Part shown: positions 1,136-20,177 of the stretch, piece after piece
Position numbering within the stretch: position 1 is the first letter of the stretch
How the letters are laid out: the number at the start of each line of letters is the position of its first letter
NCBI GenBank assembly: GCA_964106645.2
Contig: OZ067045.1
DNA: 64,000 nucleotides
Reading direction: 5' to 3' (one strand)
Source of the DNA: Podarcis pityusensis
Taxonomy: Eukaryota
Translations under genes and position numbers: made by a program
The notes under the pieces: generated by a model
Database searches by the model: none
Told to the model about the DNA's origin: nothing
The model's input: the letters and a program-made list of their open reading frames with translations, nothing else

Positions 1136-1249
1136 TCACCAGCTGTGCTCCACTTTGGTACCTTGCACTTCTGGCAATGTCAGAAACACCTGAGCGTCAG
1201 CAAATTCCGGCTCTGCCACGGTGACCACAGGCCCAGGTGTCTGAAGCAC
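1136..1249 (-). CDS. ZBTB40: ZBTB40 terminal coding exon (VLQTPGP...QVFLTLPE...; apparent frameshift near 1154-1156)
   Basis: ttccttgtcAG|GTG CTT CAG ACA CCT. In-frame TGA at 1138-1136. The conserved tail continues in another frame to TGA at 1091-1089. Confidence 0.85.
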   Translation of the reverse strand: MLQTPGPVVTVAEPEFADAQVFLTLPEVQGTKVEHSW

Positions 1250-3245
1250 CTGACAAGGAAAGGACATGGATGTCACTGCTTCAGCTGGGCAGAAGAGTAT
1301 GCTGGACATTCACTTTGCGGGCAGGTAGCCACTCACGCTCAGCCTGGCTTTCCTCCTCACAGTATAATGGGGAGTGGGTGAAGTTGAGGCAACTCCAAGT
1401 TGGCATCAGAAGAAAAGGGGCGACACTGTTTACATCCAGACTGGGGAACTGGATCTGACCGGTTGGCAGTCAATTGGGCCCATGAACTGGAGGTTCCCCA
1501 CATCTGGCCTATATCGTAACACACCAGGAAAAACTTTGCGTGTGGGGGAAGCTGTGTTAAGAGGCTTTGTCCTTCCTGATGGGATGACACAGAACAGGGG
1601 CCCAGACGAAGGACTGGGAAGGGGTCAGCTTAACATCCCTAATGGGAAAGGTATCACTGACCTGCACTACCTGGGCCATTGGAACTTGTGAACTGGCAAC
1701 CACCATCTTTGGGTGCTCAGCACCACAGTGCTGCTCCAGCTGCTCTTGTCCAGGGAAGACCTCCTCGCAGAGTGTGCAGACCAAGGAAGGCTCCGATGGG
1801 CTGGTGTGTTTGGTGGCCAGGTGCTGCTGCAGTGCCCCCTGGAGGTGGAAAGAGGCTGAGCAGTGTGGGCAGTGGAGGGGCTGAGACCCTAAGGGAGAGA
1901 GAGAGAGAGAGACAGCGAAGTCATGAGTAGGCAGGGAAATGGGAACCTCCTGAGAGAGGGGCAACAAGGGGCAAATTAGTGGGACACTCACCTGAGTGCT
2001 GGCTTTTCTCGTGAGCCTGCAGCAAAGCGACCGAAGGGAAGAGTCTCTTGCACTTCTCACACTCATGGAATGTCACTTCTAAAGGAAAGCCATGAGACCC
2101 CCGGTAGGTAGTTTATCAAAAAGAGGGTTCAGCCACAGGCCAGATATCCACTGACCTTCATCCAGCCCCCTGCTTAGGAGAAGAGTTTGCAAAGCCTTTT
2201 TGGGTGGCTCCTCTAATGCATTCTCTTCCAACCAACACAGCCTCACAAAGAGCCACCCACCTCGGTAGAGTGGATCCCTCTTCCCCAAAACCTGGCTGTT
2301 GTGGGATCCGCCAGACTCCCTACACTTGTCCCCTCAATCCAAAACCACTGCCTAAAAATATGGGATTGGCGATATGGGATTGGGGGGGCAACTCCCATCT
2401 CTTGCGGGGGCGCAATTAGTGCCAGCACCGTCCGTTAAGAGTTTGGGTGTAATCTTCGACACCTCCCTTTCCATGGAGGTGCAGATTGCAGCTATAACAA
2501 AGGCGGCATTTTTCCATCTCCGCCAAGCTAAGCAGTTGGCTCCTTACCTCTCTCGCCCTGACCTAGCCACTATGATCCACGCGACGGTCACCTCCAGACT
2601 GGATTATTGTAACTCGCTCTACGTGGGGCTGCGCTTGAGACTGACCCAGAAACTCCAGCGGGTGCAGAATGCTGCAGCGAGACTCCTTACGAGGTCTTCG
2701 CTGCAAGATCACATTCACCCGGTGCTATACCAGCTGCACTGGGTCCCGGTGGAGTACAGGATCAGGTTTAAGATGCTGGTTTTAACCTTTAAAGCCCTAT
2801 ACGGCCTAGGACCCTCGTACCTACGGGACCGCCTCTCCTGGTATGCCCCACAGAGAAACTTACGGTCTTCAAATAAAAACATCTTGAAGGTCCCAGGCCA
2901 CAGAGAAGTTAGGCTGGCCTCAACTAGAGCCAGGGCTTTTTCGGCTGTGGCTCCGATCTGGTGGAACACTCTGTCACAAGAGACCAGGGCCCTGCAGGAC
3001 TTGACATCTTTCTGCAGGGTCTGCAAGACAGAGCTGTTCCACCAGGCCTTTGGCCAGGGCACAGCCTGACTCCCTCCCTCGGCAATCTTCGCGGAGCTCT
3101 GGCCCAATGGTTGCCAGTGGCTTGAATTCATTAATTTTATAATGAATGATTTTAGAGTGTTATTTATGCTGTACTTTTGTACTGTTTTATTGTTGTTAGC
3201 CGCCCTGAGCCCGGCTTCGGCTGGGGAGGGCGGGATATAAATAAA

Positions 3246-3281
<36 letters not shown>

Positions 3282-6200
3282 AAGTGAAGTGTGAAGACAG
3301 CATGCACCCAAACCCCACCAAACTATGGCAAGCAACGGAGGTTTTTTGGAGGTCCAACAGTTCCTAGGAAGAGTGTGGTGGATTCCATATACCTCCACAC
3401 CCCCAGAGGAAGTCTACCTCTGAACACAATGCCGGGGAGGGCAGGGACCACCCTGATTTTGACTTTGCCAGGAACAATGGCTGCCGAATGAACTGGACCT
3501 TGGTCTGATCCCACAAAGTTCACCTAACAGCCAGTGCTGAGCTGGAGGCCCCGTGCCAAATGTCAAGACCTGTCGGGCACCAAGAGCAGAAGGCACCAAG
3601 GTGGCACTTTTGCCCTCTGAGTCCTTTACCTGAATGCTCTTCCTTGGTGTGTCTCCTGTGGGCTGCAGTGCTGGGAAAGGTCTTATCGCAGGAGCTGCAC
3701 TGCAGCGAAGAGAACTTGGAGGACCGGTGGTTTTGAGCAGCAAAGATGTCCGGGTGATGAGTCCGATTGTGGTACCACAGCCCTGACAATTGCTGGAGGG
3801 AGCAAATCCATTCTGGTTATCACAACCCACAGAGGGGCTTGGGCTGCAGGTTCAAAGCCTCGACTCTGGGATTCACACTGACTATAGGGTTTCCACCCCC
3901 TCACTCCACCCCCAAGGTAGACAATGGCTTCTGTCTCCAAAGGAAACACTGCCACATCATTCCCTTGGCTGTTGCTACCCCACATGCCCCCAATTGCATT
4001 TTCTATCTATCCACAAAGGGAGGTGAATGGATGCACACAGCAGAGCCTGATCTTCAGTGGAGGCAAGTCTTTGGAAGAAGTCCAAGTAAGACTTCCCTGA
4101 TGCTCCTTCTCTGCCATCCCTGGGTGCAAAGGAGTGACCAAGTCAGAATCTGATTGCCTGTTGTAAACACAGTCTTTGGAACCAATGGGCTGGTTTTATT
4201 TGGTATTTTATTGTTACAAAGTCACCTTTGACTGATTTTTATTGTAAAACGCCTTGTGCAAAATATAGCTTTTTATCGTGTACAAAAAGACAAAATGCCC
4301 ATTTTAGAATTCAGCACTTTTGGATTCCCAGAGACTCGGGGGAAGCAATGCAAGTTGTGTCTGTGTGTGCGAGGGAGAGGTGAGACCTAAGAATGGAAAA
4401 GGGGAGGGACGGTTGTCCTGTTGGCCACTGCTTCTGCCAAAGCAGACCCACCTGATAAGCTTTGTTGCAGATCTGGCAGCTGAAAGGTTTCCCCCCGACG
4501 TGGGTGACCACGTGGCGCTCCAGCAGGGATGGTGCACTGAAAACCTTTCCACAGGTCGGGCATGGGTGGTACTCCCTAGAGTGGGCTGCATGAATGTGCT
4601 TCTGGTGCTCCTGCAGGGTGGGGAAGCTCATCTGGCACTTCTGGCAGTCATAGGGGTCGTCAACATCTGAGTCCCCATGTGGAGGGTAGGGTAGGAAGGT
4701 GGGGCCAGGATACAACGAGTTCACATGCAGAGGGTTCAGGAGGAGCAGAAGGACAAAACAAGAGCTGGTTACAATCACACAACTGTTTCCCCTCAGATTA
4801 TGACTGCCCTACCCTCAGGAGGGACTTTGCTCCCAACCAGGACCACATTCAGTCTTAGCTAGGCATCATGTCGGTGCTCCTCATGATTCCAGCCTTGCTG
4901 GCAGAGCCCAAGCCCTTGACTATACCCTGCTGTGTGGGACTTTTAGGCAGAGACACAGAAGAACAGCTGCCAGCAATAGCAGACCTCCAGCTCCTGGAAG
5001 GACAGTTGGGGTCACCCTACCTCAAGGGCTCAGCACTGCCTCCTTTTCCAAAGCAGCAACACATGCAAGAGTGTAAGCTTGAGAGCAAGAACTATCAGAT
5101 TACTCATCATTATAAAAAAAAATCTCTAAATACTAATAAACTCCTCTAGATCTCTGGCACTGGTCCAGGAAGGGGATGCCCTCACAATAAGAGGAAGAGC
5201 AGGGGGCATCCTGCAACTGCTTCCTTCCAGGGTGTGTCTGCAGCACTTTTAAGTGCATGAGCAGTAAATGGCAAAACTTACAAAGCTAGGGAGGGCGGGA
5301 AGCTGTTGCTGTCATTATTTGTTGTCATTTATTATTATGAAGCTCAAGGCACTCACTGTGAAAGGTGTGCAGGTGTATGGAGAGACCGTTGGCTTGGCGG
5401 AAGCCTTTCCCACATTCCCGGCAGACGTAGGGTTTGTCACCTGTGTGGGTGCGCACGTGGCGGGACAGCTCAATGGACTGCGCGAAGACGGCGGCACAGT
5501 ACTGGCAAGCGTACATCTTCCCTGCCAAGAGAGCCAATGCAGTGTGTTGGTATGAGGGCTAATATTATGACACTGAGCCTAAGCATGGAAGGACTGGCAT
5601 GCTAGAAGGACCATCATCAGCTTTCCAGAATACCCAAGCCGTGCCTGGTCTCACAGCAGTGTTAGAAAATCAGATATACAAGCTAGGTGCCAAATGGCTC
5701 CTTTAACCAAGGTTGCAGTTGCCAAAATGAAATGTCTAGTTGCCACTAACTGACTCTCAGTTAAACATCCAGCTAGTTCAGATGACAATCTTGAGCCAGG
5801 TTAAGAGCTTGGTGATCTTAAAGATGAAAAATCACTTGACCCAGAGACAGCCCACATATATATTGGCCTATTCTGACCTGTTTTTCTTAATGGTGACTGT
5901 TCCTGCTCAGGCTGTGCAGAAAAAGTACTTGGGTTCCTGAAATGCATTCCAATTGTGCTGATAAAATAATACCGACAGAATTCTACAGGATGGGGTATGA
6001 GTGTGTAAAAACAGTCCAGATCCAATGACCCCCAGGCATGCACCTCCAGATGGTGGTGTCAGACGCCATCCTGGCACCCAGGCATCTTCACTTGGTTGAA
6101 AGTGTTCAAAAGCCAGGTGCAAAATGTGCCTGGCTAATCTCAAACACTGTCTCAGAGTGACAGGGATCAGCTGGAAAAGACAGCAAGAGGAGCCAAAAAA

Positions 6201-8634
6201 GGTGGCTGAGGGACAGAGGGCAGCAACCCACTTTGGGGTCTTCAAAGCTGTGATGAGGTCAGTCTCTTCCCTGTGGCTGGGTAGCCCCACAAGGGAAGCA
6301 CTCATACGCCCCAACTTTCAGTACCCAGCAGCCTGTGAAGTTTGGCTCCTCCACACAGCGGGGCTCAGTGCTGCTTGCCAAGGTGCCTTTCCCTGACTCC
6401 CAGCCCTGCTGTGCAGCAGTACATCACGGCCCAACCCCTGCTCTATTGGGGAGCCTTGGCACATTTCGGCAGTGGGCTGCGTGAGATGCAGCCTCTGGGT
6501 GTGCAGGGGGAAATGACACGTGTCGGAAGGGCCCCCGGTTCTTTGCTAGCTTCCCTGACTCCTGTCAAATTGCTGCAGTCGGAGGCTGACCCGGAGGGAC
6601 GCCTGGCCTCACCTTTGGCGTGCTTCTTCTTGGTATGGTAGGCGAGAGCCGAAGCCTGGGCGAAGCTCATCAGGCAGTGCTTGCAGGCGAAGGGCTGGTC
6701 ACCCGTGTGCAGGCGCTGGTGGTTCTTGAGCGTGGAGTTGGCCGCAAACTTGGCGCCACACTCTTCGCAGGAAAAGGGCTTCTCGTCAAAGTGCTCCGTC
6801 AGTTTGTGGTACTGCATCCCTGAGGGGAGGCGGGGAGGGAGAAGGAAACAGCAGCAGGTGAGGCAGGAAGCCTTCAGCTCCCCAGCACACTATGTGCAGC
6901 CTTTTCAGATCAGCTTCTCGAGGGACACAGAGCTGCTCACCACTGCCTGCTCAAACTGGGCCCGGGCTGCAGCGGAGGGGATTCACGCTGGGAAAAGTCC
7001 CTGCTGTGGGAAGGGCCCTCTCTCAAGCTTTTCTTGGGCATGGTAAGGAAGTGGCATTCACTCGCACAGCCCTCGCAATGTGCCCAGAGAAAGTCATCTA
7101 GACTGGGCTAAGCAGAGTGGGAGGAGCAAGGCTTCTTCTCCAGCCTCAAGGCTTTGAACTGGGCTGCCAAGCCTGCTCCCTCTGCCTCAGCCAGGCTCAG
7201 CAGGCATCTGGATCTAGAGCAGGGTTTCTCAAACTTGGGTCGCCACCTGCTTTTGGATACAATTTCCATCATTCCTGGCCACTGGTCCAGATAGCTAGGG
7301 ATGATGGGAGTCCAAAAACAGCTGGAGACCCAAGTTTGAGAAACCCCAATCTAGAGGATGACTGGACCTCTGGGGTTTCACTTCTGAATGCAAAGGGGGC
7401 CTGACTGTAAATGAAGAGATAAAAGGGAAGCCTGCAACTCCCAGGAGCCCTGCGGCTGGCCATACCTGATGTGTGTGCAAACTCCCGCCCACAAATGTCG
7501 CAGGCCACGGGGAGGCGGGGCTTCTTGGGCTTCTTCTTCCGGAGGGAGGAGCCTAGCTTGCCGTGAGCCTCCGCCTGGTGCTTCTCCAGCTCTGCCTTGG
7601 AGGCCTTTGCCTCGCCACACTCTGGGCATTGCGCCGGTTTCTGGTGGGCCACCCGGCAGCGCTTCTCGTGTACCTTCAGGCGGCAGTAGAAGCGAAAGCT
7701 CTTCCCGCAGGCCTTGCAGGCAAAGCTCTTTGGGGAGGCAGCCCCCCTGGGGGCCTCTGGGCTTCGGCCCCCCTTTGGCTCCGCTTTGCCCACCGCTTCA
7801 ACCTGAGACATGCTGTTCACCTTCCATTTCCAGACACTGGCCTTCCCTCCGTCGACAGCTGTCAAGAGCCCTGTGGAAGAACAAAAGGAAACAGTCGTTC
7901 TGAGGCATGTGGACTGTGGCTTCAGGGCCATCAGCAGGAGCCAAAAATATCTGTAGAACAATATGCTGAGCACAGCTTCCAGAGAACCTTTGTAAGGGTC
8001 AAGTTTCTAGCTTCTAGCTTACTAGTTTCTAGTAAGTGCTTCCAAGCATCAGGACAGTTCCAGACCATTCCCAGGAGTGGTCAGCAGTAGCAACTGCTTC
8101 AGCTTCTTATCTACCCCCTTGCCAAGCAAAACTTACACCAACTGTGTAAAGCAATAGGAATTCTGAAGCGCACTTGAACGGGTGCAACATATGCAGGTCA
8201 CATGGCTTTAATCTTTGTAGCACCTGAAGTAAAAACCTTGTACCACTTCCCTAAAGCTACTTGGAAAGTGCAAGAGAGGCTGGGCAACGAGGATCAACTA
8301 CTCAAGGTCAGGCGGCTTGAAAGGAAGGAGAAGTCCTGCAAGGACATGCCTGCACCTGAGGGGGACACCACTCTTCCCATGCACTGAACAGCTCAGCAAC
8401 AGCACAAATGGGTTTCTGCTACAAGGGTCTATATTTTGCATTGTCTTACTTTTGTTTTCGGTGTATCTGTTGTTTTTTAAAAAACTTTTCTTGTTTTTCC
8501 TGTACATTGTCTTCAGATGATTGTGTAGAAATTGATTGATAATAATACTTAAAAACCTAAAAAATTATTCTACCTTTAATTAAGCAAGTTTCTAGGCCTT
8601 ACGTGTGCAAGGGGGGTGTCTGGTGGAATCTCTC

Positions 8635-8672
<38 letters not shown>

Positions 8673-11600
8673 TTATTATTTATACCCCACCCATCTGGCT
8701 GGGTTTCCCCAGCCACTCTGGGCGGCTCCCAACAGAATATTAAAAACACGATAAAACACCAGACATTAAAAACTTCCCTAAACAGGGCCGCCTTCAGGGG
8801 ACTGAGCAGGGTTTTCAGGGTTAGAGAATGCTTCCATGGACTGCATCACTCTCTTCTCCTCCCCACGGCAGTAGAAGAAAGTAGAAGAAACCAGGCAAAA
8901 TCAGCTGCCATGTGAAAGTGTCTTCCACACTTTCCTCTGGCTGCTCCCCCCTACTGGACCCTTCTACAACAACCAGGTTCCTCATGCAACAACCCAAGAC
9001 CGTAGGCCTTTGAGTGCTACCTCTACTCTGCAATGAAAGGCTTCTTCTGCTTCCGTTTGCTCCAGCATCTCAGCAGCCCCCTGAAAGAAGCTGGGAGTGA
9101 CTCTGGGCAGCATTCAGCCTCCTGGCTGTGGATTCCTGAACTGACGCACAGCGGGAGTCGCTTTGCAGTGAGCTGCTCCCCCCACTCTCCCTTTGCCTCA
9201 AGTTCTGCCAAATTGACCACAAAACAATGCACCTCTCAAGCATGCACACAGAGGTGTATGTTGCCAATTGCAGGCTGGGGCTGGGCGTGTCCCCCACCAC
9301 GTGCCTAGAGAGTGGCATATACAAGGCAGAAAGATTCTCACCAGCTTGCTGTAGTTCCTGCATCACTGTCTGCAGGCCTGGGAATGACTCCTGAATGCTG
9401 CAGAGGAGCTGGCAGATCTGGGTGGCAGGAAGTGGCTTGTTGTTCCAGGCACTGCTCAGAGCTGCCCTCCAGGAGGTCGCAGGGGCCACCTCCTGCAGGC
9501 AAGTGCTCACCAGCTGGGAAAAGCCACAGAAGAAACACACAATGAAGAGAGTCCCCCTACCCTGCTGCATAGCAGGATTATTTGACCTCTCCACTGGGTG
9601 CCTGAGCAGGTGCAGATGCTCCCCATGTGTGGCACGGGGGACTAGATCAACCCAGAAGGTCCAGTGAGTTCAGCCACATGCCTCTGGGAGCTGCCAAGCA
9701 GGGACAGAAAAGACAGCAGCCCTGCCCTGTCGAACTGCAGTCGTTTATTGACTCCTAAACATGCCCTGAGAGCCTATAGGGCAAGGGATGGTTTTCATGT
9801 GTAGATAATAAATAAATAACCAAAATGAAATGCAACATAGAAGCTCTGTTGAGCTACAGTGGTGGAGGGCTGTTGATGATCAACTTCCTCCCTGAATGCG
9901 TCCATTTGTATTTTGTGGCAATGAATCACATAAGCTAATAATGCATTTGATAAAGCAGCACCACCTCCTTCCCAGTCATCGGGGGTGATGTTGCGATGGG
10001 GTGACGACCAAGTGGTGAAGCACACATTCACCTGGCCATCCACCCAGCAGACATCCTGCTACAGACTTAGCACACCTGAGATATACACACCTGGCATCCA
10101 GGGACAGCATCCTGAACCTCCTTGGCTGGTTTGGCCAGATCTGCTTCTACTGGTGGCAACTCCTCTTCTAGATCAGCTCCCTGCTGGAGGGCCTCGGATA
10201 TCAGCTTGCGATGCCTCAGTAATATTTCTGTGGCAATGCTGTCACTAGAGCCAACTATGGAAACGGGCAGGGTGGGGTGTCAAATTACCAACTAGAGGGC
10301 TACTGCAGAGCCTCAGCTTCCCAACAGTCATGCCATTTCCCTGCCCCAATATGTGCTCCCCATTGTGAGAAATCTTCAAACTGTCTCTTGGAGCCTGGAT
10401 AACCCAGATGGGATGGTTTCAAGTCTAGACTAGAGGACATGTAGGAACAGGCCATCCTGAGCAAGCAAGGAGACCAGCCGTACGCAGAAAGAGTCTATGT
10501 TGTGGGTGAAGACTCTCCTGCATGTCACAAAGACCATCTGAGGCCTCGTTGGACAAGGTGGGGGGTGGGCACCCTCTGTTCCATGATCCTGAGCGAGAGC
10601 TCAGTTGGGGCCATAGCCTGCAAAGCCTTTTCTGAACACCCACCGCCGCCAAATTGTCACCCCAAGGATACCTGTGCTGTCAGAACCAACTGCTGCAGCC
10701 ACCCAACGGTCCAGTAGGAGACCCAGGCCAGGGAAAGGAGCTTTCAGGGCCCCGAGAAACTTTGACAGGGCCTCTGGGCTCAGGATCTTCTCCTCCTTGA
10801 ACAGATTCTCTGCAGCGTCCCTGGGTGAGCTGCCCTCAGAGCAGTCCATGGCAACCTGCAAGGACAATTACACAGCTAAGCAGGAGATGCTGAGAAACGT
10901 AGCAAACGCACATGCAATACTCCCCCGCCCCCAAACACACATTAATGCAGTTTGCAGTAGCTGAAATTTTGAGACACATACACTATTTCAAGTATGTTTC
11001 AGAAATCTAACCTGGCATGTTTGGCAGTGACAGGATCTGTGCATTCCAGGAAATATTTCAGTTGGGCATCAATTCTGTGCAAAGGCACCACAGATGCTTA
11101 ATAGCTATCAAGAGCAATGCAAACTGGGAAAACCTGGCCCTAACTTATCTGTTTAATTCATTTATATACCACCTATTAGGGTACAAACTCTTGCAAGGTA
11201 TCTTACAAAAGATATATAAATGTAATATATGATAAACATTAAAAAAAGACAAACTGATTTAAAATAACTGACGGAAGCAGCAGCTAATGCATGAATCCAG
11301 CTTAAGACCTTGAGATAATGTAGTCCCAACTCCCTTCCAATGCAGGAATATGCAGCTGTCCCAAACAGGGATCGAACCTGCAACCTTCGTGTTATCAGCA
11401 CCATGCTCTAACTAACTGAGCTATCCATCATGAAGTGAACTGGGCAACTCTGCCTACCTCCTTGACATAGAATTAAGTACTAGGCCAAATTTCTTGGCAG
11501 AAAGGAAGGAGGCATTAGTGGGAGAGGGAAGGGTGATGTGGGTAAGAAGGGAGTGGCAAAAAGACAGGGGCATGCCCCTGCCTTCCCCTTTTTCCAGTTT

Positions 11601-13290
11601 ACCTGCTTTTCTGCCCCAGAGAGGAAAGCATCATCCTCTGATGTGTCCAAGAGCCCTTGGATAGGCCTCAGCTGTGTCAAATCCTTTAGAAGCTCTTCCT
11701 TACTTTCCTGGGGCACAGCAGCTATAGGCTTCACCTCTTCTGAGCTTCCTATGAAAAGAGGAAGCCCAGAAAGTCAAAGGGAGAAAGGCCAGTGGAAGCC
11801 GGATGATAGCAGGGGGCTACTGTCTTCCTCTTCTGAGAATTATTCGCCAAGCAAGAGAACACTACATACTGTGCACACCAAGCATACATAATGGATATAT
11901 GTGCCCAACTGATCACTGCACTCTGCAGCAGATTTCACCTGGGAGTGCATTCCATGTTGGCATCTACTGAAGACCTCCTTTCAAAATGCCTTGTAAGTGC
12001 AGTTTTTTATCCCAGCCTTTATTCATCTGGAAATTGTATTCCTTTTTTCTTTGTTACTGTTGATGCCTTGTTGCTAAATTGCTTTGGGATGTTTCATGGG
12101 AAGTGAGTCACAAATGAAACCGGCACAAATGAGTGCAAGGAAGCATTCTGGTGGGAATGTTTATGCTAAAAAACCAAAACGTCTTAATTACCTAATAGGT
12201 GCTGCTGGAGGAGTTTCTTGGGAAGAGCTTTGCTTTTCCCACCTGGGGCGCCCGATTAAGATGGTGCATCTCCCTCCTCTTGCAGACAAGGGGGAAAGCA
12301 TGCATGGACACAGGCAGAAGCTCTTGGCGTTTGGCTTGCAACAGGAGCAGCAGCTCACAGCATCAAGTGATGACTTCCATGTGTGAAATAGCCATCACAG
12401 GGAAAGCACAACAAACAAGGATGTCTACACAGAGTCAAATGCAAACTTTTCAACTGAGGCAGTTCACTAATTGACCTCACAGTTGTCATACAAGGTACAT
12501 ACATGTATGAAACAGTCCACTGGGTAGAATTACAACAGGCAAAGTTACTCTATAGTTTATTAGGAGCAGGCAATGTCAAGGTGACGCTCTCACCTGTACC
12601 TCCAACCAGGTCTTTCTCCTCTGGCAGTTTGGTGCTTTCCCATTCCTCGCAAACGCTCTGGCCACCTGGACACAGAGGGAGGAGAACTTTGGGATCCTGG
12701 CAATGAGAATCAGGAAGCTGAGTTTCCTTGTCTGAAGCTTCCTGACATGTGCTCTTTCCTTGCACTCTGGTGGTGTCCACAGAGTCTGCAGAGCCGGAAG
12801 AAACCTGCTCAGGATGCAACATCACTTTGACACTGAGTTTTGCAGCATGAGAACTGTCCAAAGTGGCAACACCTTTACTAGATGCATCCCCTGCCTGAAC
12901 AGAAATGTCCCTCAGCACTTCTTCTTGACTTGGAAAGCTCAGAAGGTCCCCAAGAAGGGTTTTGCAACTGACAGCCACATCAAACATCTGCAGACTGTCT
13001 GCCACAGATATTATGTTGGTGAAATTGTGCTTCCCAGGAGGCAGCTTGCCTGTATATATCATTTCTAGCAGGAGAGCAAATTCATCTGGGGCCACCACAG
13101 AAGCATCAATGGAGACTGTGTCTGTGCCATCCAGCACAGACCTGAACAACACACTGGCTGCTGCCAGCACAAGCTTGTGCGCTCGGAAATGCATCGTCCC
13201 AACCAAGATGCTACAGTCGCAGAACTGCTGTTCCCTGCAGAGTGTATGGAGCTGTTGAAGTAGTTGCTGGCTGTAGTTTGGAAGATCCAT
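1136..13290 (-). CDS. ZBTB40: Zinc finger and BTB domain-containing protein 40 (13 coding exons, about 970 aa as read)
   Basis: Exons with GT-AG boundaries and compatible phases: 13290-12594, 11748-11603, 10855-10672, 10254-10118 (alt donor 10091), 9513-9342, 7870-7466, 6819-6613, 5521-5357, 4666-4452, 3792-3630, 2078-1992, 1888-1662 (alt donor 1671), 1249-1136. N-terminus MDLPNYSQQLLQQL..FCDC..FRAHKLVLAAAS is a BTB domain. Finger array (MQYHKLTEHFDEKPFSCEECGAKFAANSTLKNH, KMYACQYC..FAQSIELSRHVRTHTGDKPY, QLSGLWYHNRTHHPD) matches recalled human ZBTB40. Confidence 0.95.
1662..1888 (-). CDS. ZBTB40: ZBTB40 exon, last two zinc fingers
   Basis: (CT)n tract then cccttAG|; two in-frame donors CAG|GTAGTG (1671) and CAG|GTCAGT (1662). 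Confidence 0.9.
1992..2078 (-). CDS. ZBTB40: ZBTB40 zinc-finger exon (EVTFHECEKCKRLFPSVALLQAHEKSQHS), absent from ORF track
   Basis: ttcctttAG| ... CAG|GTGAGT; 87 nt, phase 1->1. Confidence 0.92.
2350..3281 (+). mobile_element. 5'-truncated L2-clade LINE (RT C-terminal region, 3'UTR, (ATT)n tail) in a ZBTB40 intron
   Basis: ORF 2374-3069 has SLGVIFD, SRLDYCNSL, LQRVQNAAARLL, LHWVPV..RIRFK and RAFS..AP..WN.L, all typical of L2 ORF2; ends in an ATT microsatellite. Confidence 0.92.
3630..3792 (-). CDS. ZBTB40: ZBTB40 zinc-finger exon
   Basis: cctccAG| ... CAG|GTAAAG; 163 nt. Confidence 0.94.
4452..4666 (-). CDS. ZBTB40: ZBTB40 zinc-finger exon
   Basis: actcAG| ... CAG|GTGGGT; 215 nt; NVDDPYDCQKC..CPTCGKVFSAPSLLERH. 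Confidence 0.94.
5357..5521 (-). CDS. ZBTB40: ZBTB40 zinc-finger exon
   Basis: ttggcAG| ... ACA|GTGAGT; 165 nt. Confidence 0.95.
6613..6819 (-). CDS. ZBTB40: ZBTB40 zinc-finger exon
   Basis: ccctcAG| ... AAG|GTGAGG; 207 nt. Confidence 0.95.
7220..7348. mobile_element. Palindromic hAT-type MITE
   Basis: TIRs gggtttctcaaacttgggtc / gacccaagtttgagaaaccc; 8-bp TSD ATCTAGAG at 7212-7219 and 7349-7356. Confidence 0.85.
7466..7870 (-). CDS. ZBTB40: ZBTB40 exon, first zinc fingers and basic NLS-like KKKPKKPR
   Basis: ttccacAG| ... CAG|GTATGG; 405 nt; CKACGKSFRFYCRLKVH. Confidence 0.93.
8635..8798 (-). mobile_element. LINE (L2-like) 3' end with (AAT)n microsatellite
   Basis: (AAT)n followed by tttataccccacccatctggctgggtttccccagccactctgggcggc; related copies at about 30830-30965 and 31125-31395. 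Confidence 0.7.
9342..9513 (-). CDS. ZBTB40: ZBTB40 exon (LVSTCL...ICQLLCSIQESFPGLQTVMQEL)
   Basis: ttttcccAG| ... CTG|GTGAGA; 172 nt, phase 0->1. Confidence 0.9.
10118..10254 (-). CDS. ZBTB40: ZBTB40 exon (VGSSDSIATEILLRHRKLISEALQQ...AKE), absent from ORF track
   Basis: tttccatAG|; donor GAG|GTTCAG at 10118 or in-frame CAG|GTGTGT at 10091; resembles human ETILRHNQLILEAIQQ..ETVKE. Confidence 0.82.
10672..10855 (-). CDS. ZBTB40: ZBTB40 exon (VAMDCSEG...FPGLGLLLD)
   Basis: ccttgcAG| ... CAG|GTATCC; 184 nt, phase 0->1; resembles human VILNCCEG..FPNLGLLLE. Confidence 0.85.
11603..11748 (-). CDS. ZBTB40: ZBTB40 exon (SSEEVKPI...TQLRPI...FLSGAEKQ)
   Basis: ttttcatAG| ... CAG|GTAAAC; 146 nt, phase 1->0; resembles human VTQLRPIMESL..FLTGTEKR. 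Confidence 0.88.
12594..13290 (-). CDS. ZBTB40: ZBTB40 first coding exon (BTB/POZ domain)
   Basis: ATG at 13290; acceptor tgcgtacAG| with exon start 13346; donor CAG|GTGAGA; 697 nt coding, phase 1. Confidence 0.95.
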
Positions 13291-13699
13291 AGCTCCCTGC
13301 AAGTCTCTGCTCCCTTCACGTTCTGTATAGTTTTGCTCCCAATCAGCTGTACGCAGATGAGAAGAGCAGCAAATTAGTTGCGTGGACTGTACTTGTTCCC
13401 TTCCCCATTATGATCAAACCTGTGGCGTTACCACGAACAAAGGTGAACAGCCTTGGGACACTACTGCTTTCCACCTGTAAAACCCAACTAGACTTTGAGT
13501 AAGAAAGTATTTCCTCCAAACAGGGTAATTCTATTTAGAGACCTCTGCTCTGCTCTCTAGTTCTGCCTGCTGTGTAACATTTGCCATCCTTCCTCAAAAT
13601 CGACATTTTCTGGCTCAACCTCCTGGTTCCCATTCCTTACTGCAAACCTCAACATGTAAGGAAGCCTAGGAGGGCCATCTTAAGTGGATACAAATTGTT

Positions 13700-13862
13700 G
13701 CACCAGAAGTAGTTTTAGTCATGCTGGCCACTGGGCCCGGAAAGCTGTCTGTGGACAAACGCCAGCTCCCTCGGCCCGAAAACAAGATGAGAGCCACAAC
13801 CCCATAGTCACCTTTGACTGGACTTAACCAGCAAGGGGTTCTTTACCTTTTAATTTTACCTA
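13700..13862 (+). mobile_element. Bov-B LINE / Sauria SINE 3' fragment
   Basis: ttagtcatgctggccac...gatgag..caacccca..gactggact..tttaccttt shared with the full Sauria SINE copies in this window. Confidence 0.75.
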
Positions 13863-14329
13863 CTGCTCTTTAAATATCTGAAAAGGTAGAGTTAATGAGA
13901 AGCATGGGCCTGTTGCGGACAGGGGCTTTCAAACAGCCCAGTGCTGTTCCGTGGACCTTTGGTTTCCCACTGAAAGGAAGCTCCTTGCGGAAGGCAAAGT
14001 CCCACAAATGATGCCAGGTTACACCATGCTGGTGCTGCCCACGGTTCACCCAAAAAAGCTTCAGTTTGGAGAACTGCAGGTCTTTTGAGAGGCGAACTAC
14101 AGCTCCCAGGATTCTTAAAGGGAAGTCATGCATTGGAAACATGTGATGGGCCTGAGTTTGTGGTGTGTGTCCCCCCCCCCCCCGTCGCTTTCGTGAGCTG
14201 TTTCTTATCCCAAGCCGCTCTGGGAGCCTTTTTGTAAGGGGGTGGGGACACAATGAAAGCGATGCTCCAGCCTCGAGGCATCTTTCCTCCCTCATTCCCT
14301 GCCATGTCTCACAGCCTAACAGAGCCCAA

Positions 14330-15330
14330 CTTGGGCCGAGTGCCCTTTCAAGGGAGATGCGTGGCCGGTGGCCAGCTGCGAGGGGCGGACGCAGAGGCCC
14401 TCCCGAGCAGCACCAGCCTCCCGAGGGGCTTGTCCCGGACGAGGCCTCCCACCCGGGCGCGCTCTCTCCCTCGCCCGTTCGAGCTAGGCGGCGGCCGCCC
14501 GAAGGGGCCCCAGGCCCACGCAGAAGCCAAACGCAGGGGCCTGCCCAGAGCCAGAGTCTTCTTCGTGGCCCCCACCCTCCCCGGTCGGGTGAAGGAGAGA
14601 CGAATTGGGATACGGCGAGGAGGGCCTAAATCGAGCGCCTAGGCCGGCTGCCGTTGCCATGGTTACCTTTATTGGGAGCCGCGCGGCGGCGGACACGGGC
14701 GAAGGTGGGCGCGAGGGAGGAGGAACAATAAAGCTTCAACAAGGACGGCGTTCCTCAGCCGCTTCTCGGCCCCGCCTCCTCCCGGGCACAGAGGCGGAAA
14801 CAAGAGAAGAGTCGCGCTTCACAGGCGGGTCCCGAGGCGGGACTTCCTCTCTCGTCGCTTGTCTGTCAACGGAGGTCCACCACCCGCCTCGCGTCAAATG
14901 GTTAACTTCTGAAGACCGGATTGGCCGCTGCGGGAGCAACGAGGTCACGTGAACAGCCACGGCCTGCTCTGGAAGAGCGCTCGGGGCTGGGAAGGGAGAG
15001 GCCGGTCGGCTACTGTTCAGGATTCCCCCAATGGCTTCGTTTGTTAGCACCACCCTCCCGCCTCAAAAGTAAAAAGTGGGAATAGGAGCCAGGACGTTAT
15101 GCGTCTAAAGATAGGAGTGATCAGTCTACCATTTTTTTCTAAGTCTATGGTTCAGGGGTTATTTGCATGAGCCGAGCGACCGGATGTTCGCGGTTCGCGT
15201 CGCTCTAGGCAGCGCCCTGAAATTCTATGGAAAACATCCTTTTTGGCCTCTTTGACGTCATCAGACGTCGACAGGAAGAAAATTTCCTTCCCGGAAGTAG
15301 GTCGGAGGAAGACACAAAATAGGGGTAGGA
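14330..15330. promoter_or_regulatory. CpG-island bidirectional promoter of ZBTB40 (-) and MUL1 (+)
   Basis: High GC and CpG density between divergent genes. Motifs: RFX X-box 14653-14666, E-box GTCACGTGA 14944-14952, octamer ATTTGCAT 15161-15168, full CRE TGACGTCA 15253-15260, ETS/GABP CCGGAAGT 15291-15298. Likely ZBTB40 non-coding exon-1 donor AAG|GTAACC at 14667; possible MUL1 exon-1 donor near 15324. Confidence 0.85.
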
Positions 15331-17389
15331 ATGCTGTCTGGAGAGCATCCCTTTTTCTGGAGCCGGATATGGTGGAAGCCTCCTGTGTTACCCTGGGGAT
15401 ACAGGGCGTAGGGGTGGAGTCTCTTTTAGGGGTGGCTTGCTTGCCCTGGGGAATCCTGAGATTGGTGTAGGCAGCTTGGGGGTGCGGTCGTTGTAGCTTT
15501 ACTGATATACAGTATTACAGGAAAGGGACACTCTGGCATGAACTGACTGGCAGAAGAGACTGGTCCTTCACATTATGTTGACTTGACTTGTGGAACTGCC
15601 TGCCACATGATTTGAGCATAGACTCTCACCTCAAGCAGCTTTAAAGGGAGATGAGCCAAATTTCATGAAGGAGAAGATAAACTGTGGAACCATCTGGGAG
15701 AGGGCTGTGGTGTACAGCCCCCGTTTGTGACCTCCCCATTGTGAAAAGCACAATGCTGGTCTAGATGGGCCTCTGGCCTGGTATGGTAGAGCTCTGCTTG
15801 TTGCATTATTAAATTTATATCCCTTTACTCCGTGTTGCTCAGAGAGTATGCAAAGGTTCTCTCCTGCCTCTATCCTATAATTTTGTCCTCCCATCAACCC
15901 TGTGAGGTAGGGTAAACTGAGAGATTGTGGCTGACCTGAAGTCACCAGCTGAGCTTGATGGCTGAGTAGGGGAGGGATTTGAACTTGATCTCCCAAAGTT
16001 TTGGGGATTAGTCTGATTAGCCTTGACTACTTTTATAAGTTGGTGACTGGAAGGTGGTTTGGAGAGCTGGATACTGGAGGTTTTTTTTCCTGAGGCAGCA
16101 GTTGTATTTGAGATGGCATTGTGTATTGTGCCACCTTGATGGGTTTAATTGAAGCATCTGCTTCCGTGGTCTACAACCCCTTCATCAAGTGTATAAAATG
16201 TTGTCCTTCATGAGTATCTAACTGACAAAACAGATTATAGGCTGCGAAAACTGGTGCCACAATAAATCTTCTAGTCTTTGAGGGTCTGCAATATTCCTTG
16301 CTTTAAGAATAGTGGATAACCAATGAAATTCCCGAGGTGGGTAATAAAAAGAAATAAACAGTAGTGTACATTCACCTCCTTGGTATTCCAGGTTAAAACT
16401 ACCATATTAACCAAACTTTTAATGGCAGATTTGTGACCTGCTGGGACTGCTAATTTTTGATGTTATGAAAGAGTGACTATTTCTTCCTGTTTTATGATTG
16501 TTGGGTGAATTGATTGATTTTAGGCTACATGGGGGTGTAATGAATCTATGTGAGCTGCTTTGTAGAATCTGGAGAGGAAAAGCTGCACATAAATACTTAT
16601 AATAAATGAGAAAAATCACATTGTTTCTGAATACGGTGTTGTATTTGAAGTTTGTGTATATATTTGAAAATCAATTAAAATATAATACAAAGAAAAAGAT
16701 AAACGCATTCAAATCAAGAATCCACATCTAGAGAATAGTAAATCTGGTAAATAAAAAAGGCAAATTTTCAGTTGAGCAGGAACCACAAATGAACAGGGCA
16801 CGTTCTAGAAACTAGCAGCCATCTATAATGTTTTAAATATTAGTGTTATAAAAGGTTGTCATAATGAATGAGGAGACAGCTTGCAGAGAGAATTCTCCAA
16901 GTCATAAGAATCATTTATAAGCACCTATTGGGGTGCTTTCACAGTTACTGTATCCAGGCTGGATAGTTGCATTCTTTTTTAAATTCAGCTTATGGTAGCC
17001 GAAAGCAACCTTGATACTAGCACAGGTAGGCTATTATGTGTTATTTGTTTCCAGAATTTTTACATATCTGAAGAAATCTCTCTTTCAAAATATCACTATG
17101 CCCAGAGAAATTTCCCTCAGTCTGCTCTTGCTGTGTGTGGACTCTTGAAGGTTGTTGCCAGATATACTCCAAATGAGTCTGAGGTGTATAATATGACTTG
17201 TGGGCAAGATAAGACACGTATAGACATAGGAGTAAAGTATTGAAATAGGATTGGGCAGTCTTTGGGGATATAGTGTTGCAGAGATGGGAGGCTAGGTTAT
17301 TTCTAACCCTTTGTGCTTTCTCACTAAAGAGCCCCAAACCATTTTATTTTTCTCTTTCTAGGCATATATACCAGAGTTAGATTATAGCA

Positions 17390-17509
17390 ATGGATGCTGC
17401 CGGACGTCCTTCGACGGGACAGGTGATCCTCCTGGCGACCAGTTCAGCTGTCACCGCAATTCTGTATGCCATTTACAGGCAAAAGTCAAAAATAGTTTAC
17501 AGCTTGAAG
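17390..17509 (+). CDS. MUL1: MUL1 coding exon 1 (MDAAGRPSTGQVILLATSS...SLK)
   Basis: Acceptor ctttctAG| at 17362 implies an upstream non-coding exon; Kozak gcaATGG; donor AAG|GTCAGT. Confidence 0.93.
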
Positions 17510-20177
17510 GTCAGTTGCTGCTTAGAACAGGGCCACAGATAACCATTATTTTTAATTTTACGTATTCAGTATTTTTTCAATGTCTGTTCTGCTTCTCAAC
17601 TGAAAAGTATCTGGAGCAGCTGCAACAGCCTTTAAATGTTGAATTTATAAAAGGTAAAGCCTGTTATGAACATTATAAACTAAAAGTATATTGGATCCAA
17701 AAACTACAAATGCCAAACGAAGGGAGGAAATCCCAAAAGGCGAGAAAGGAGTGGGGGGCACACAATTATTGTGTTATGAGTTGTAGTCAATTAATTCCTA
17801 CGCAAAGTAGACCTATGCAAAGATTTTGAGTGAAGAATGGGCTCTTACCAATGTTTAATTCCCTCCACCCAGGGAGCGAAAAAAGTCACCCTAGACCAGG
17901 ATTTGAAGACTATCCTTATGGAAGCGCCTGGGAAATGTGTTCCTTATGCAGTAATAGAAGGTAGGGTTTGTGAGTCTTGTGGGTTGCTGGTAATGGGGGT
18001 GGGAAGCATGTATGAGTGTTTGCCATTAGGTGTCTAGTTTGCTCCATCTGTCAGGGAGGATTATGGTATAACATGCACACTAAAATGCAACTCCCATCAG
18101 CCTCAACCAGTGATCATGGCTGTCCCTGCACTGCATAGTCCTTAGACCTGTGGGTAAATTAATAGGTTCCTATTGCTCTTGCTGTTCTGTTACACTGTGG
18201 TGAGTCTTCAGGTGTGCAATTAAGCTCTTTTCAGCTGTTTTTTCTTCCCTCTGCCATCCAATAGGTGTAGTGCGGTCTATTAAGGAAACCCTCAACAGTC
18301 AGTTTGTGGAAAACTGCAAGGGAGTGGTTCAGAGGCTAACACTGCAGGAGCACAAGATAGTGTGGAACCGAACCACGCACCTCTGGTAGGTACATTTCAC
18401 TCCCAGACTTGAAAATGGGGCAAGAGCGTTGTTGCTTCCACTGGTGTATTGGTGTGAGGCAAGAGCCTTTATTGGAGCATGTGGCTTAATCAGTAGCATA
18501 GGCCAGGTGCCATTCAGATTATTATAATCCACCTTTCAATCTCTATCAGGGTGGAGTCTGCATGCAGTCCTATATACTCCTCTGGCCCCCAGGGCTCTCC
18601 CCAGGCTGTATCCCCTCCCCAGGCTTGCTCTGTCCCCCCATGAGTGCTTTTGCCTGGCTGGAATGTGCGCCTGTGAGAATGCCTCTAGCTTGCCAAGATG
18701 GAGAGTTGTGTATAAAAAAAATCTGGCTTCTGTGCCAGAAAAGCAGCCCCCTTGCTAAAAAAAGATCCTGCAGGTTTTTTCAAAGTCTGCATCTAGCACA
18801 TAAGAAGTTTAATCAAAGTGTGTTGTGGCACCTTAAAGACTAATACATTTGTTATGGCATAAGGTTTTGTGGACAAAAGTCCATTTTGGTATTGCGTAAA
18901 GGATAATTCTCAATGGGCAGATACGGGGTAGGGAGAGAGAGATGTAAAGAGTGAGGCAAAGTGTCAATGAAAAGCAAACAAAAGAGGAAAACAAAACAGT
19001 TTGTGACAATTGCATTGCAGTTGGAAACAGGGGCAGGGAACCGTTTTGGACCAGTGGTGGGTAGAGCCAGAGGCAAAGGTGGCAATAAAGAAAATCAAGT
19101 TTTACCTTGTATAGCAGGCTAGATTTTACACACACTCGGTCCTCCATTGAGAGAAGGAAGAAACATTATCAGAGTTCAAGAATGCATTCCAACCAGGCAA
19201 GAACACTGAGGGAAGGGTGCAACTTTGGAAGATGTATGGCTTGATGAGAGGCCTGAGGGCCATAGACCTGCCCTGTCCCTGATCTGAATAGTCATGATAC
19301 GGAAGGGGAGGGAAGAGAAGTGCAAGCAAATTCCGGCAAACTCAAGCAAATTCTTCATTAAGTTTTTGTAGACTGAAATGTTAGGACCCATTCCCAGGCA
19401 AACCTTTATGTCCCCAGCTAAGTGGGCAATCCGTTCTGTGTTTCTGCTGCTGCTTTAAACCTTTGTGCTGGGTCCTCGTTCCCCAGGAGCGACTACGAGA
19501 AGATCATTCACCAGAGGACCAACACGACAGCCTTTGATATGGTGCCCCAGGAGGGAGGAGCCGATGTCGCCGTGAGGGTGTTGAAACCCCTGGACGCTGC
19601 CGAGCTTAGCTTGGAGACAGTGTACGAGAAGTTCCACCCGTCTGTCCAGTCCTTCACGGACGTGATTGGCCACTACATCAGCGGGGAGCGCCCCAAAGGC
19701 ATCAAGGAGACCGAAGAGATGCTGAAGGTGGGGGCGGCGCTTACCGGGGTGGGCGAGCTGGTCCTGGACAACAACACCATCAGACTGCAGCCCCCCAAGC
19801 AAGGGATGCGCTATTACCTAAGCAGCCTAGATTTCGAGGCCTTGCTCCAGAAGGAAGAATCGAGCGTCCGTCTCTGGAAGGTCCTGACTCTACTTTTTGG
19901 TTTTGCGACGTGCGCTGTGCTCTTCTTTGTCCTCCACAAGCAGTACCGCCATCACCGGGAGAAGCAGCGCTTGCGTCAGGTGCAGGAGATGATCGCAGCA
20001 GGCGGGGACACGCTGAATGCATGCGTCGTCTGCTTGAGCAATGCCCGCTCGTGTGTGTTCCTCGAGTGCGGGCACGTCTGCTCGTGCGACAAGTGCTACC
20101 AGGCGCTGCCGCAGCCTCCCCGTTGCCCCATTTGTAGGCAAGAGATCGCAAGAGTCGTGCCTTTGTACAACAGCTGA
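17390..20177 (+). CDS. MUL1: Mitochondrial E3 ubiquitin/SUMO ligase MUL1 (MULAN/MAPL/GIDE), 339 aa
   Basis: Exons 17390-17509, 17873-17960, 18265-18385, 19487-20177 (120+88+121+691=1020 nt), all GT-AG. N-terminal TM, GIDE domain (APGKCVPYAVIEG, ETLNSQFVENCKGV, IGHYISGERPKGI), second TM, C-terminal RING (CVVC..CVFLECGHVCSC..C..CPICR). Confidence 0.97.
17873..17960 (+). CDS. MUL1: MUL1 coding exon 2
   Basis: cacccAG| ... AAG|GTAGGG; 88 nt. Confidence 0.95.
18265..18385 (+). CDS. MUL1: MUL1 coding exon 3
   Basis: caatAG| ... CTG|GTAGGT; 121 nt. Confidence 0.95.
19487..20177 (+). CDS. MUL1: MUL1 coding exon 4 (GIDE C-part, TM2, RING)
   Basis: ttccccAG|; ends VVPLYNS-TGA. Candidate polyA AATAAA at 20750-20755. 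Confidence 0.97.

Follow-up and report, generated by a model that had tools for sequence, protein, structure and literature searches.

The locus examined here raises the question of how a lizard ZBTB40 gene came to carry only two of the four internal repeat units found in its outgroups, and when the other two disappeared. The window, by which we mean the whole analysed stretch of 64,000 nucleotides from Podarcis pityusensis (contig OZ067045.1, assembly GCA_964106645.2), carries the gene on its minus strand. An original prediction, made from the letters alone, held that the first and third units had been lost by decay in a single lineage-specific event. We thus focus here on what the gene contains, what the units are likely to be, and how and when the missing ones were probably removed.

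A ZBTB40 gene with two exon pairs

The gene is ZBTB40: the best matches of its BTB exon all bear that name, the top-ranked being that of Podarcis muralis (98%), and the product combines an N-terminal BTB domain with a C-terminal C2H2 array. The BTB exon has a single match genome-wide at E <= 1e-20, and ZBTB40 is thus single copy. The 13-exon model (Table 1) has a frame that is open throughout, AG/GT ends at every exon and a product of 981 aa, within the 970-990 aa that had been expected, and 978/981 of its residues are identical to those of the P. lilfordi record. As predicted, only two exon pairs separate the BTB exon from the fingers, the exon model and spliced contigs agreeing on this, and each pair is frame-neutral: units 2 and 4 are both flanked by phase-1 introns and have an inner intron of phase 0. 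For units 1 and 3 we infer the same phase 1-1 flanks from skip positions in the models of other species.

Table 1. Features of ZBTB40 between the BTB exon and the C-terminus (positions in the window)
Feature	Position	Strand	Details
Coding exon 1, BTB domain and linker	12594..13290	-	697 nt, ends in phase 1; covered by spliced contigs
Intron, expected site of ancestral unit 1 (two exons)	11749..12593	-	845 nt; junction in 3/4 runs
Unit 2, exon a	11603..11748	-	146 nt, phase 1>0; 21 bits against unit-2a profile
Unit 2, exon b	10672..10855	-	184 nt, phase 0>1; 55 bits in profile search
Intron, expected site of ancestral unit 3	10255..10671	-	417 nt; junction in 4/4 runs
Unit 4, exon a	10091..10254	-	164 nt, phase 1>0; 27 nt beyond ancestral donor place 10118
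Unit 4, exon b	9342..9513	-	172 nt, phase 0>1; 55 bits; spliced contigs
First zinc-finger exon	7466..7870	-	405 nt, phase 1>1; spliced contigs
Seven more exons, C2H2 array and C-terminus	1136..6819	-	13-exon model: 6819-6613, 5521-5357, 4666-4452, 3792-3630, 2078-1992, 1888-1662, 1249-1136

For splicing we turn to contigs from four runs, which belong to 3 studies of a related organism and are presumed to be RNA; no run is recorded as RNA, and support for transcription lies in the canonical splice joints in the contigs. These contigs skip all five introns among six exons at canonical ends, four of the junctions in 4/4 runs, and one contig spans all six exons in order with nothing in between; some others keep introns, as expected of unspliced RNA or DNA. 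The junctions anticipated as 12594 to 11748 and 10672 to 10254 were both found, the first as 12593/11747 in 3/4 runs and the second in 4/4, and the exons on either side are joined directly, with no additional in-frame exon in those introns. Of the four exon sizes originally given, 146, 184 and 172 nt stand, and 137 nt does not. That shorter exon would end at the ancestral donor place, 10118 (GAG/GTTCAG), which is unused; it is ruled out, as 4/4 runs use the donor at 10091 (CAG/GTGTGT), 27 nt on, giving an exon of 164 nt that stays in frame and adds 9 residues to unit 4.

The two-unit structure is no assembly error, since it is borne out by the spliced contigs and since DNA contigs bridge the introns concerned. 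The 417-nt intron is bridged by single DNA contigs in 2/4 runs, from different organisms, one of them possibly the source of the window; a third DNA run bridges it in overlapping pieces, with small indels only. One DNA run only, possibly from the window's source, bridges the 845-nt intron in one piece.

Several other features lie in or next to the gene. High-copy repeats with very high contig depth occupy two ZBTB40 introns (~11338-11427 and 8606-8806); by eye, the first resembles a tRNA-derived SINE, and no tRNA gene was called in 7000-15500. Within a late ZBTB40 intron, a 237-aa open frame on the plus strand (2356-3069) is presumably the end of a LINE reverse transcriptase. A RING-finger gene on the plus strand (~14660-20177), which we take to be MUL1, stands head to head with ZBTB40 across the GC-rich 14000-16000.

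The four units, their ancestry and the timing of loss

The four units are homologous to one another, with hhalign probabilities of 94.8-98.5 in 6/6 pairs at 16-23% identity, against a probability under 0.4 in the control of units versus BTB. A model of the turtle array (pLDDT 76.8, pTM 0.35) has four helical bundles joined by low-confidence linkers; units 1-3 are each modelled as a six-helix bundle about 90 residues long (local pLDDT mostly 79-94), and unit 4 is modelled less well (51-81). In a structural search with this model, 20/22 of the best rows were CARD-bearing entries, covering units 2 and 3, and the best matches were Apaf-1 (Z 7.8, rmsd 2.7, 92 aligned) and SP100 (Z 7.7, rmsd 3.1, 92 aligned), all Z values being below 8, a range in which a match may mean only a common arrangement. 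For unit 4, no death fold appeared among the structural matches listed. Foldseek returned nothing at E <= 0.001 for the turtle model; its ten best rows were RIG-I/MDA5 tandem CARD entries (E 0.05-0.5), but their tandem arrangement does not superpose on that of ZBTB40 (rmsd about 14).

Sequence profiles gave scores below threshold for these families. No unit passed the cut-offs of Pfam CARD, CARD_2 or HSR in 19 scans, the best score being 24.4 bits for HSR with paddlefish unit 1 (cut-off 24.9), and CARD_2 gave 12-16 bits in four proteins (cut-off 28.2); the lacertid proteins had no match to the Pfam CARD families. A unit profile run against the sequences of solved structures gave nothing useful (2 matches, best E 0.03). 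The array profile, run against 1.84 billion representatives, had 138 matches, among which the sole full-length one outside ZBTB40 was a shark NLR (E 4.3e-6). Within residues 152-483, the Mustelus asterias NLR has three repeats in tandem, each about 120 aa long and weakly similar to ZBTB40 unit 3; the link is weak for each repeat (about 20 bits, and hhalign 78% with unit 3 only), no Pfam death-fold family matched them, and they are a possible clue to the origin of the ZBTB40 units. Taken together, we regard the units as CARD-like, a predicted death-fold domain for which unit 4 is the least supported.

This call has a precedent. Using DPAM, Wu et al. 2025 place human ZBTB40 death domains at 236-330, 346-450 and 456-570 (PMC11874512 Table S1), which correspond to units 1-3 of the array; the same table lists three each for human, mouse and zebrafish, and two for rat. 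In the available portions of that source there is no fourth human unit, exon structure or evolution of unit number, and ZBTB40 is unnamed in the main text.

How many units the ancestor had was addressed with two sets of profiles. Eight half-unit profiles, derived from 44 proteins at least 1200 aa long, were applied to 120 proteins among the matches listed, and 63/120 have all eight halves; whole-unit profiles were applied to 47 chosen proteins, some of them in the training set, so that their scores are inflated. By the half-unit profiles, four units are present in frogs, turtles, crocodile, birds and mammals. By the whole-unit profiles, they are present in newt, coelacanth, gars, paddlefish, eel, Denticeps, milkfish, four cyprinids and a loach, as well as in lungfish, where unit 1 is weak. 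On this sampling, four units is the ancestral state, and the change is thus a loss in lizards and not a gain in mammals, which the four-unit fishes and amphibians rule out. The original statement that human ZBTB40 has four segments agrees with the mammalian profiles, and the outgroups (fishes, amphibians, turtles, crocodile, birds and mammals) do not share the two-unit form. Against the six frames of 13400-7400, the unit profiles found units 2 and 4 only, and half-unit and whole-unit profiles concur with the earlier identification of the missing units as the first and third.

The same two units are found in the models of other lacertids (P. lilfordi CAI5782694.1, P. muralis XP_028596353.2, P. 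raffonei XP_053256451.1 and Lacerta agilis XP_033012404.1), whose records, 979-981 aa long, share 942-978/981 residues with the window product and leave the missing units and their nature unremarked. Among squamates, unit 1 is present in 0/11 species examined, whereas unit 3 is missing in 4/4 lacertid species and kept in Rhineura, Elgaria and five geckos. On the textbook squamate tree, this distribution points to two steps: squamates likely lost unit 1 at their base, and lacertids unit 3 once they had diverged from worm lizards. The claim of one lineage-specific event is not supported by this comparison, as Rhineura retains unit 3. The tuatara model retains the first half of unit 1 (79 bits). 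This automatic model combines the first half of unit 1 with the second half of unit 2, has unrelated sequence in place of unit 3 and keeps unit 4 intact; it is probably faulty, the alternative being a real hybrid unit. The protein matches listed in a weak search included fishes but no ZBTB40 from snakes, iguanians, skinks, teiids or varanids; ZBTB40 may have been lost in some squamate groups, which is only a lead.

Deletion, decay and the trimming of other lineages

If the exons of units 1 and 3 had been left in place, traces of them might be sought in the introns. Eleven probes found no remnants of either unit in the five introns: 2/55 tests reached p 0.04 and none was lower, which is the chance level, and both positive controls beat 100/100 shuffles. 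Open-frame stretches between AG and GT in the five introns were considered as hidden exons and rejected, none being similar to any unit, and the Rhineura unit 3 had no match in the whole genome (best E 6.9). The coding DNA of unit 3 is ~336 nt, and the 417-nt intron is, as originally argued, too short for two exons and three introns; only two of the gene's 12 introns are shorter, and 10/12 are 417 nt or longer. Because no exon remnants were found and this intron is too short, at least part of the unit 1 and unit 3 DNA must, judging from the sequence, have been deleted and not merely left to decay. The lack of remnants by itself fits either a clean deletion or skipping followed by erosion over tens of millions of years, and cannot tell the two apart. 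The original proposal, the lineage-specific loss of frame-neutral cassettes by decay, thus stands as to loss, the outgroups having four units, and is not supported as to decay, for which no remnant speaks.

We favour, with good though not complete confidence, a history in which the sole ZBTB40 gene, whose splicing now includes only units 2 and 4 out of four predicted CARD-like repeats, lost units 1 and 3 by two intron-to-intron deletions, one near the squamate base and one on the lacertid line. First of all, a deletion with both ends in introns would preserve the frame, the units starting and ending in phase 1. Second, the low pTM and floppy linkers suggest that each unit folds on its own, like a bead on a string, so that removing one would leave the rest folded; frame symmetry and independent folding would thus make them removable. 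Third, the shorter protein may already have been a minor splice form, as the turtle and bird models that skip unit 3 suggest, and because such a form may have come first, the deletion would be nearly neutral. Finally, the units would be partly redundant protein-interaction (self-association) modules, and selection would hold on to one or more of them without preserving all four. Self-association is our leading guess for their role because the CARDs of Aire and SP100 are reported to form filaments and foci and because ZBTB40 is reported at PML bodies. Unequal crossing-over between units is an unlikely route, since they are only 16-23% identical.

An improbable alternative is that the units decayed in place, their exons losing splice sites, being permanently skipped and eroding, with any deletion coming later. 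Models that skip unit 3 are indeed frequent in turtles and birds: exactly unit 3 is absent in 23/110 non-squamate protein clusters and exactly unit 1 in 2/110, counts that are no measure of abundance, as clustering at 90% inflates short forms. A splice site has, moreover, already changed once in ZBTB40 (the unused donor at 10118), and old remnants may fade beyond detection. Against this, no trace of units 1 and 3 was found in any of the five introns, and the 417-nt intron stands in place of three introns and two exons, so that DNA was removed regardless.

The deletions proposed for the lizard would have counterparts elsewhere, as judged from gecko and teleost unit counts taken from database gene models. 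Among geckos, Paroedura has units 2 and 3, and Euleptes and Sphaerodactylus have unit 3 only; among teleosts, Myxocyprinus has units 1 and 2, Astyanax units 1 and 4, pike, mudminnows and salmonids unit 1 only, and smelt and neoteleosts unit 2 only. The trimmed gecko and teleost models thus retain 1 to 3 units, every one of the four is lost in some lineage, and the sole survivor differs between lineages. A by-eye estimate across the trimmed lineages comes to about ten deletions. At least one unit is present in 45/46 ZBTB40 proteins, the exception being a 749-aa salmon model from a species whose other model has unit 1. The agreement of related species and a cloned grouper ZBTB40 ORF of 799 aa (PMC6979330) speak for most of these trimmed models being real, and the models suggest that other lizards and fishes dropped repeats independently; the number of ZBTB40 units likely varies freely in evolution.

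Such repeated trimming could also be read as adaptive tuning, in which the number or choice of CARD-like units sets self-assembly or partners and some lineages were selected for fewer, a reading to which we give little credence. It would account for the many independent trimmings and for the retention of at least one unit in 45/46 proteins, it draws on the SP100/Aire CARD, which is reported to polymerise, being among the nearest families, and it could accommodate the 6 silent and 5 replacement codons of the retained lizard units among the differences listed (40/98 rows). Redundancy and drift would fit as well, though: all four units have been lost somewhere and the survivors differ (unit 1 in pike and salmonids, unit 2 in smelt and neoteleosts, unit 3 in sphaerodactylid geckos), and the whole squamate protein, not the units in particular, is accelerated. 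Last and least, the readings that the two-unit form is an artefact of assembly or annotation, or that mammals gained two units, have next to no chance of being correct: one tuatara and two Podarcis automatic models are garbled in the unit region and remind us that models can mislead, but the spliced contigs agree with the model, two runs, from different organisms (one possibly the window's source), contain single DNA contigs that cross the 417-nt intron, four lacertid species have the same two-unit models (976-1046 aa), and fishes and amphibians have four units.

The remaining units and what the trimming would mean

Returning to the history of two deletions, we ask what has become of the units that remain. 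Lizard unit 2 lacks conserved hydrophobic residues in its first helix, where a proline has come in, and its second exon encodes 3 residues fewer than its turtle and gecko counterparts; in unit 4, the donor shift has inserted about 10 residues, with a similar insertion in Rhineura and none in Elgaria and geckos. The model of the lizard two-unit array is poor (pLDDT 51.8), and a structural search with lizard unit 2 gave Z 6.4 to a caspase-8 DED and to a CARD, tied; the lizard units may no longer fold well. Some constraint likely remains on them: the 33 differences listed against the RNA contigs (40/98 rows) include the 6 silent and 5 replacement codons in units 2 and 4, as compared with 5 silent and 3 replacement in the linker and 9 and 3 in the finger exon. 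In distance trees made without tuatara, squamates lie 1.2 to 5 times as far from the amniote ancestor as other amniotes do in every region (BTB 0.23-0.26 versus 0.07-0.13, finger core 0.13-0.15 versus 0.03-0.04, units 0.64-0.95 versus 0.21-0.54), and an acceleration specific to the units was not seen, the BTB and fingers being faster too. As squamate ZBTB40 is faster everywhere, the unit losses may reflect a general slackening and nothing specific to the units.

A C-terminal motif of ~20 residues, whose conservation extends from teleosts to mammals, tuatara and geckos, has slipped out of the reading frame in the lizard gene (1138-1085, minus strand). Translation ends at 1138-1136, and beyond this stop the motif can still be recognised in a different frame. 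The same shifted tail closes the Rhineura protein and one Elgaria model, so that the frameshift is likely older than both. The picture that these data draw is of a lizard protein under loosened constraint that is shedding modules.

Symmetric class 1-1 exon modules, as in exon shuffling, are a textbook concept. ZBTB40 units resemble them in lying between phase-1 introns, which allows in-frame gain or loss, but differ from simple ones in that a unit consists of two exons with an inner phase-0 intron, so that offset pairs are also frame-neutral; one such pair, the second half of unit 1 with the first half of unit 2, is skipped in 10/120 models. A second comparison is with the nuclear CARD (HSR) proteins SP100, SP110, SP140 and Aire, each of which has one N-terminal CARD. 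Like them, ZBTB40 would combine a CARD-type fold with binding to DNA or chromatin in the nucleus; unlike them, it has up to four internal CARD-like units behind a BTB domain. In the parts of the literature at hand, CARD polymerisation, filaments and nuclear foci are reported for Aire and SP100 and not for ZBTB40, which is itself reported at PML bodies in ALT cells (PMC10480536).

More speculatively, and at a low probability, ZBTB40 could be an unrecognised CARD-assembling transcription factor, a BTB dimer with up to four CARD-like domains that nucleates foci as Aire and SP100 do and whose valency has been tuned from four to one some ten times, never reaching zero while the gene lasts. If so, lizards and teleosts would offer a ready-made deletion series for relating CARD number to assembly, and squamates would be dismantling ZBTB40 stepwise, first unit 1, then unit 3, the C-terminal motif and perhaps the whole gene in snakes and iguanians.

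The kind of event, in-frame loss of symmetric exon modules, was already known, as were the short lizard protein in databases and the death-fold call in a supplementary table; our search, chiefly of open-access literature, found no paper on the exon-module nature or repeated trimming of the ZBTB40 array. Mammalian ZBTB40 has been linked, in the sources as available, to bone density, spermatogenesis and telomere control, and the accessible text of PMC10480536 gives the 440 residues in its middle no name beyond 'long mid domain'. Four CARD-like exon modules would suggest a function for this region that can be tested, and the naturally occurring forms with one, two or three units would show which of its parts are dispensable. 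The gene would thereby offer a clean case of recurrent, frame-neutral module loss within one gene.
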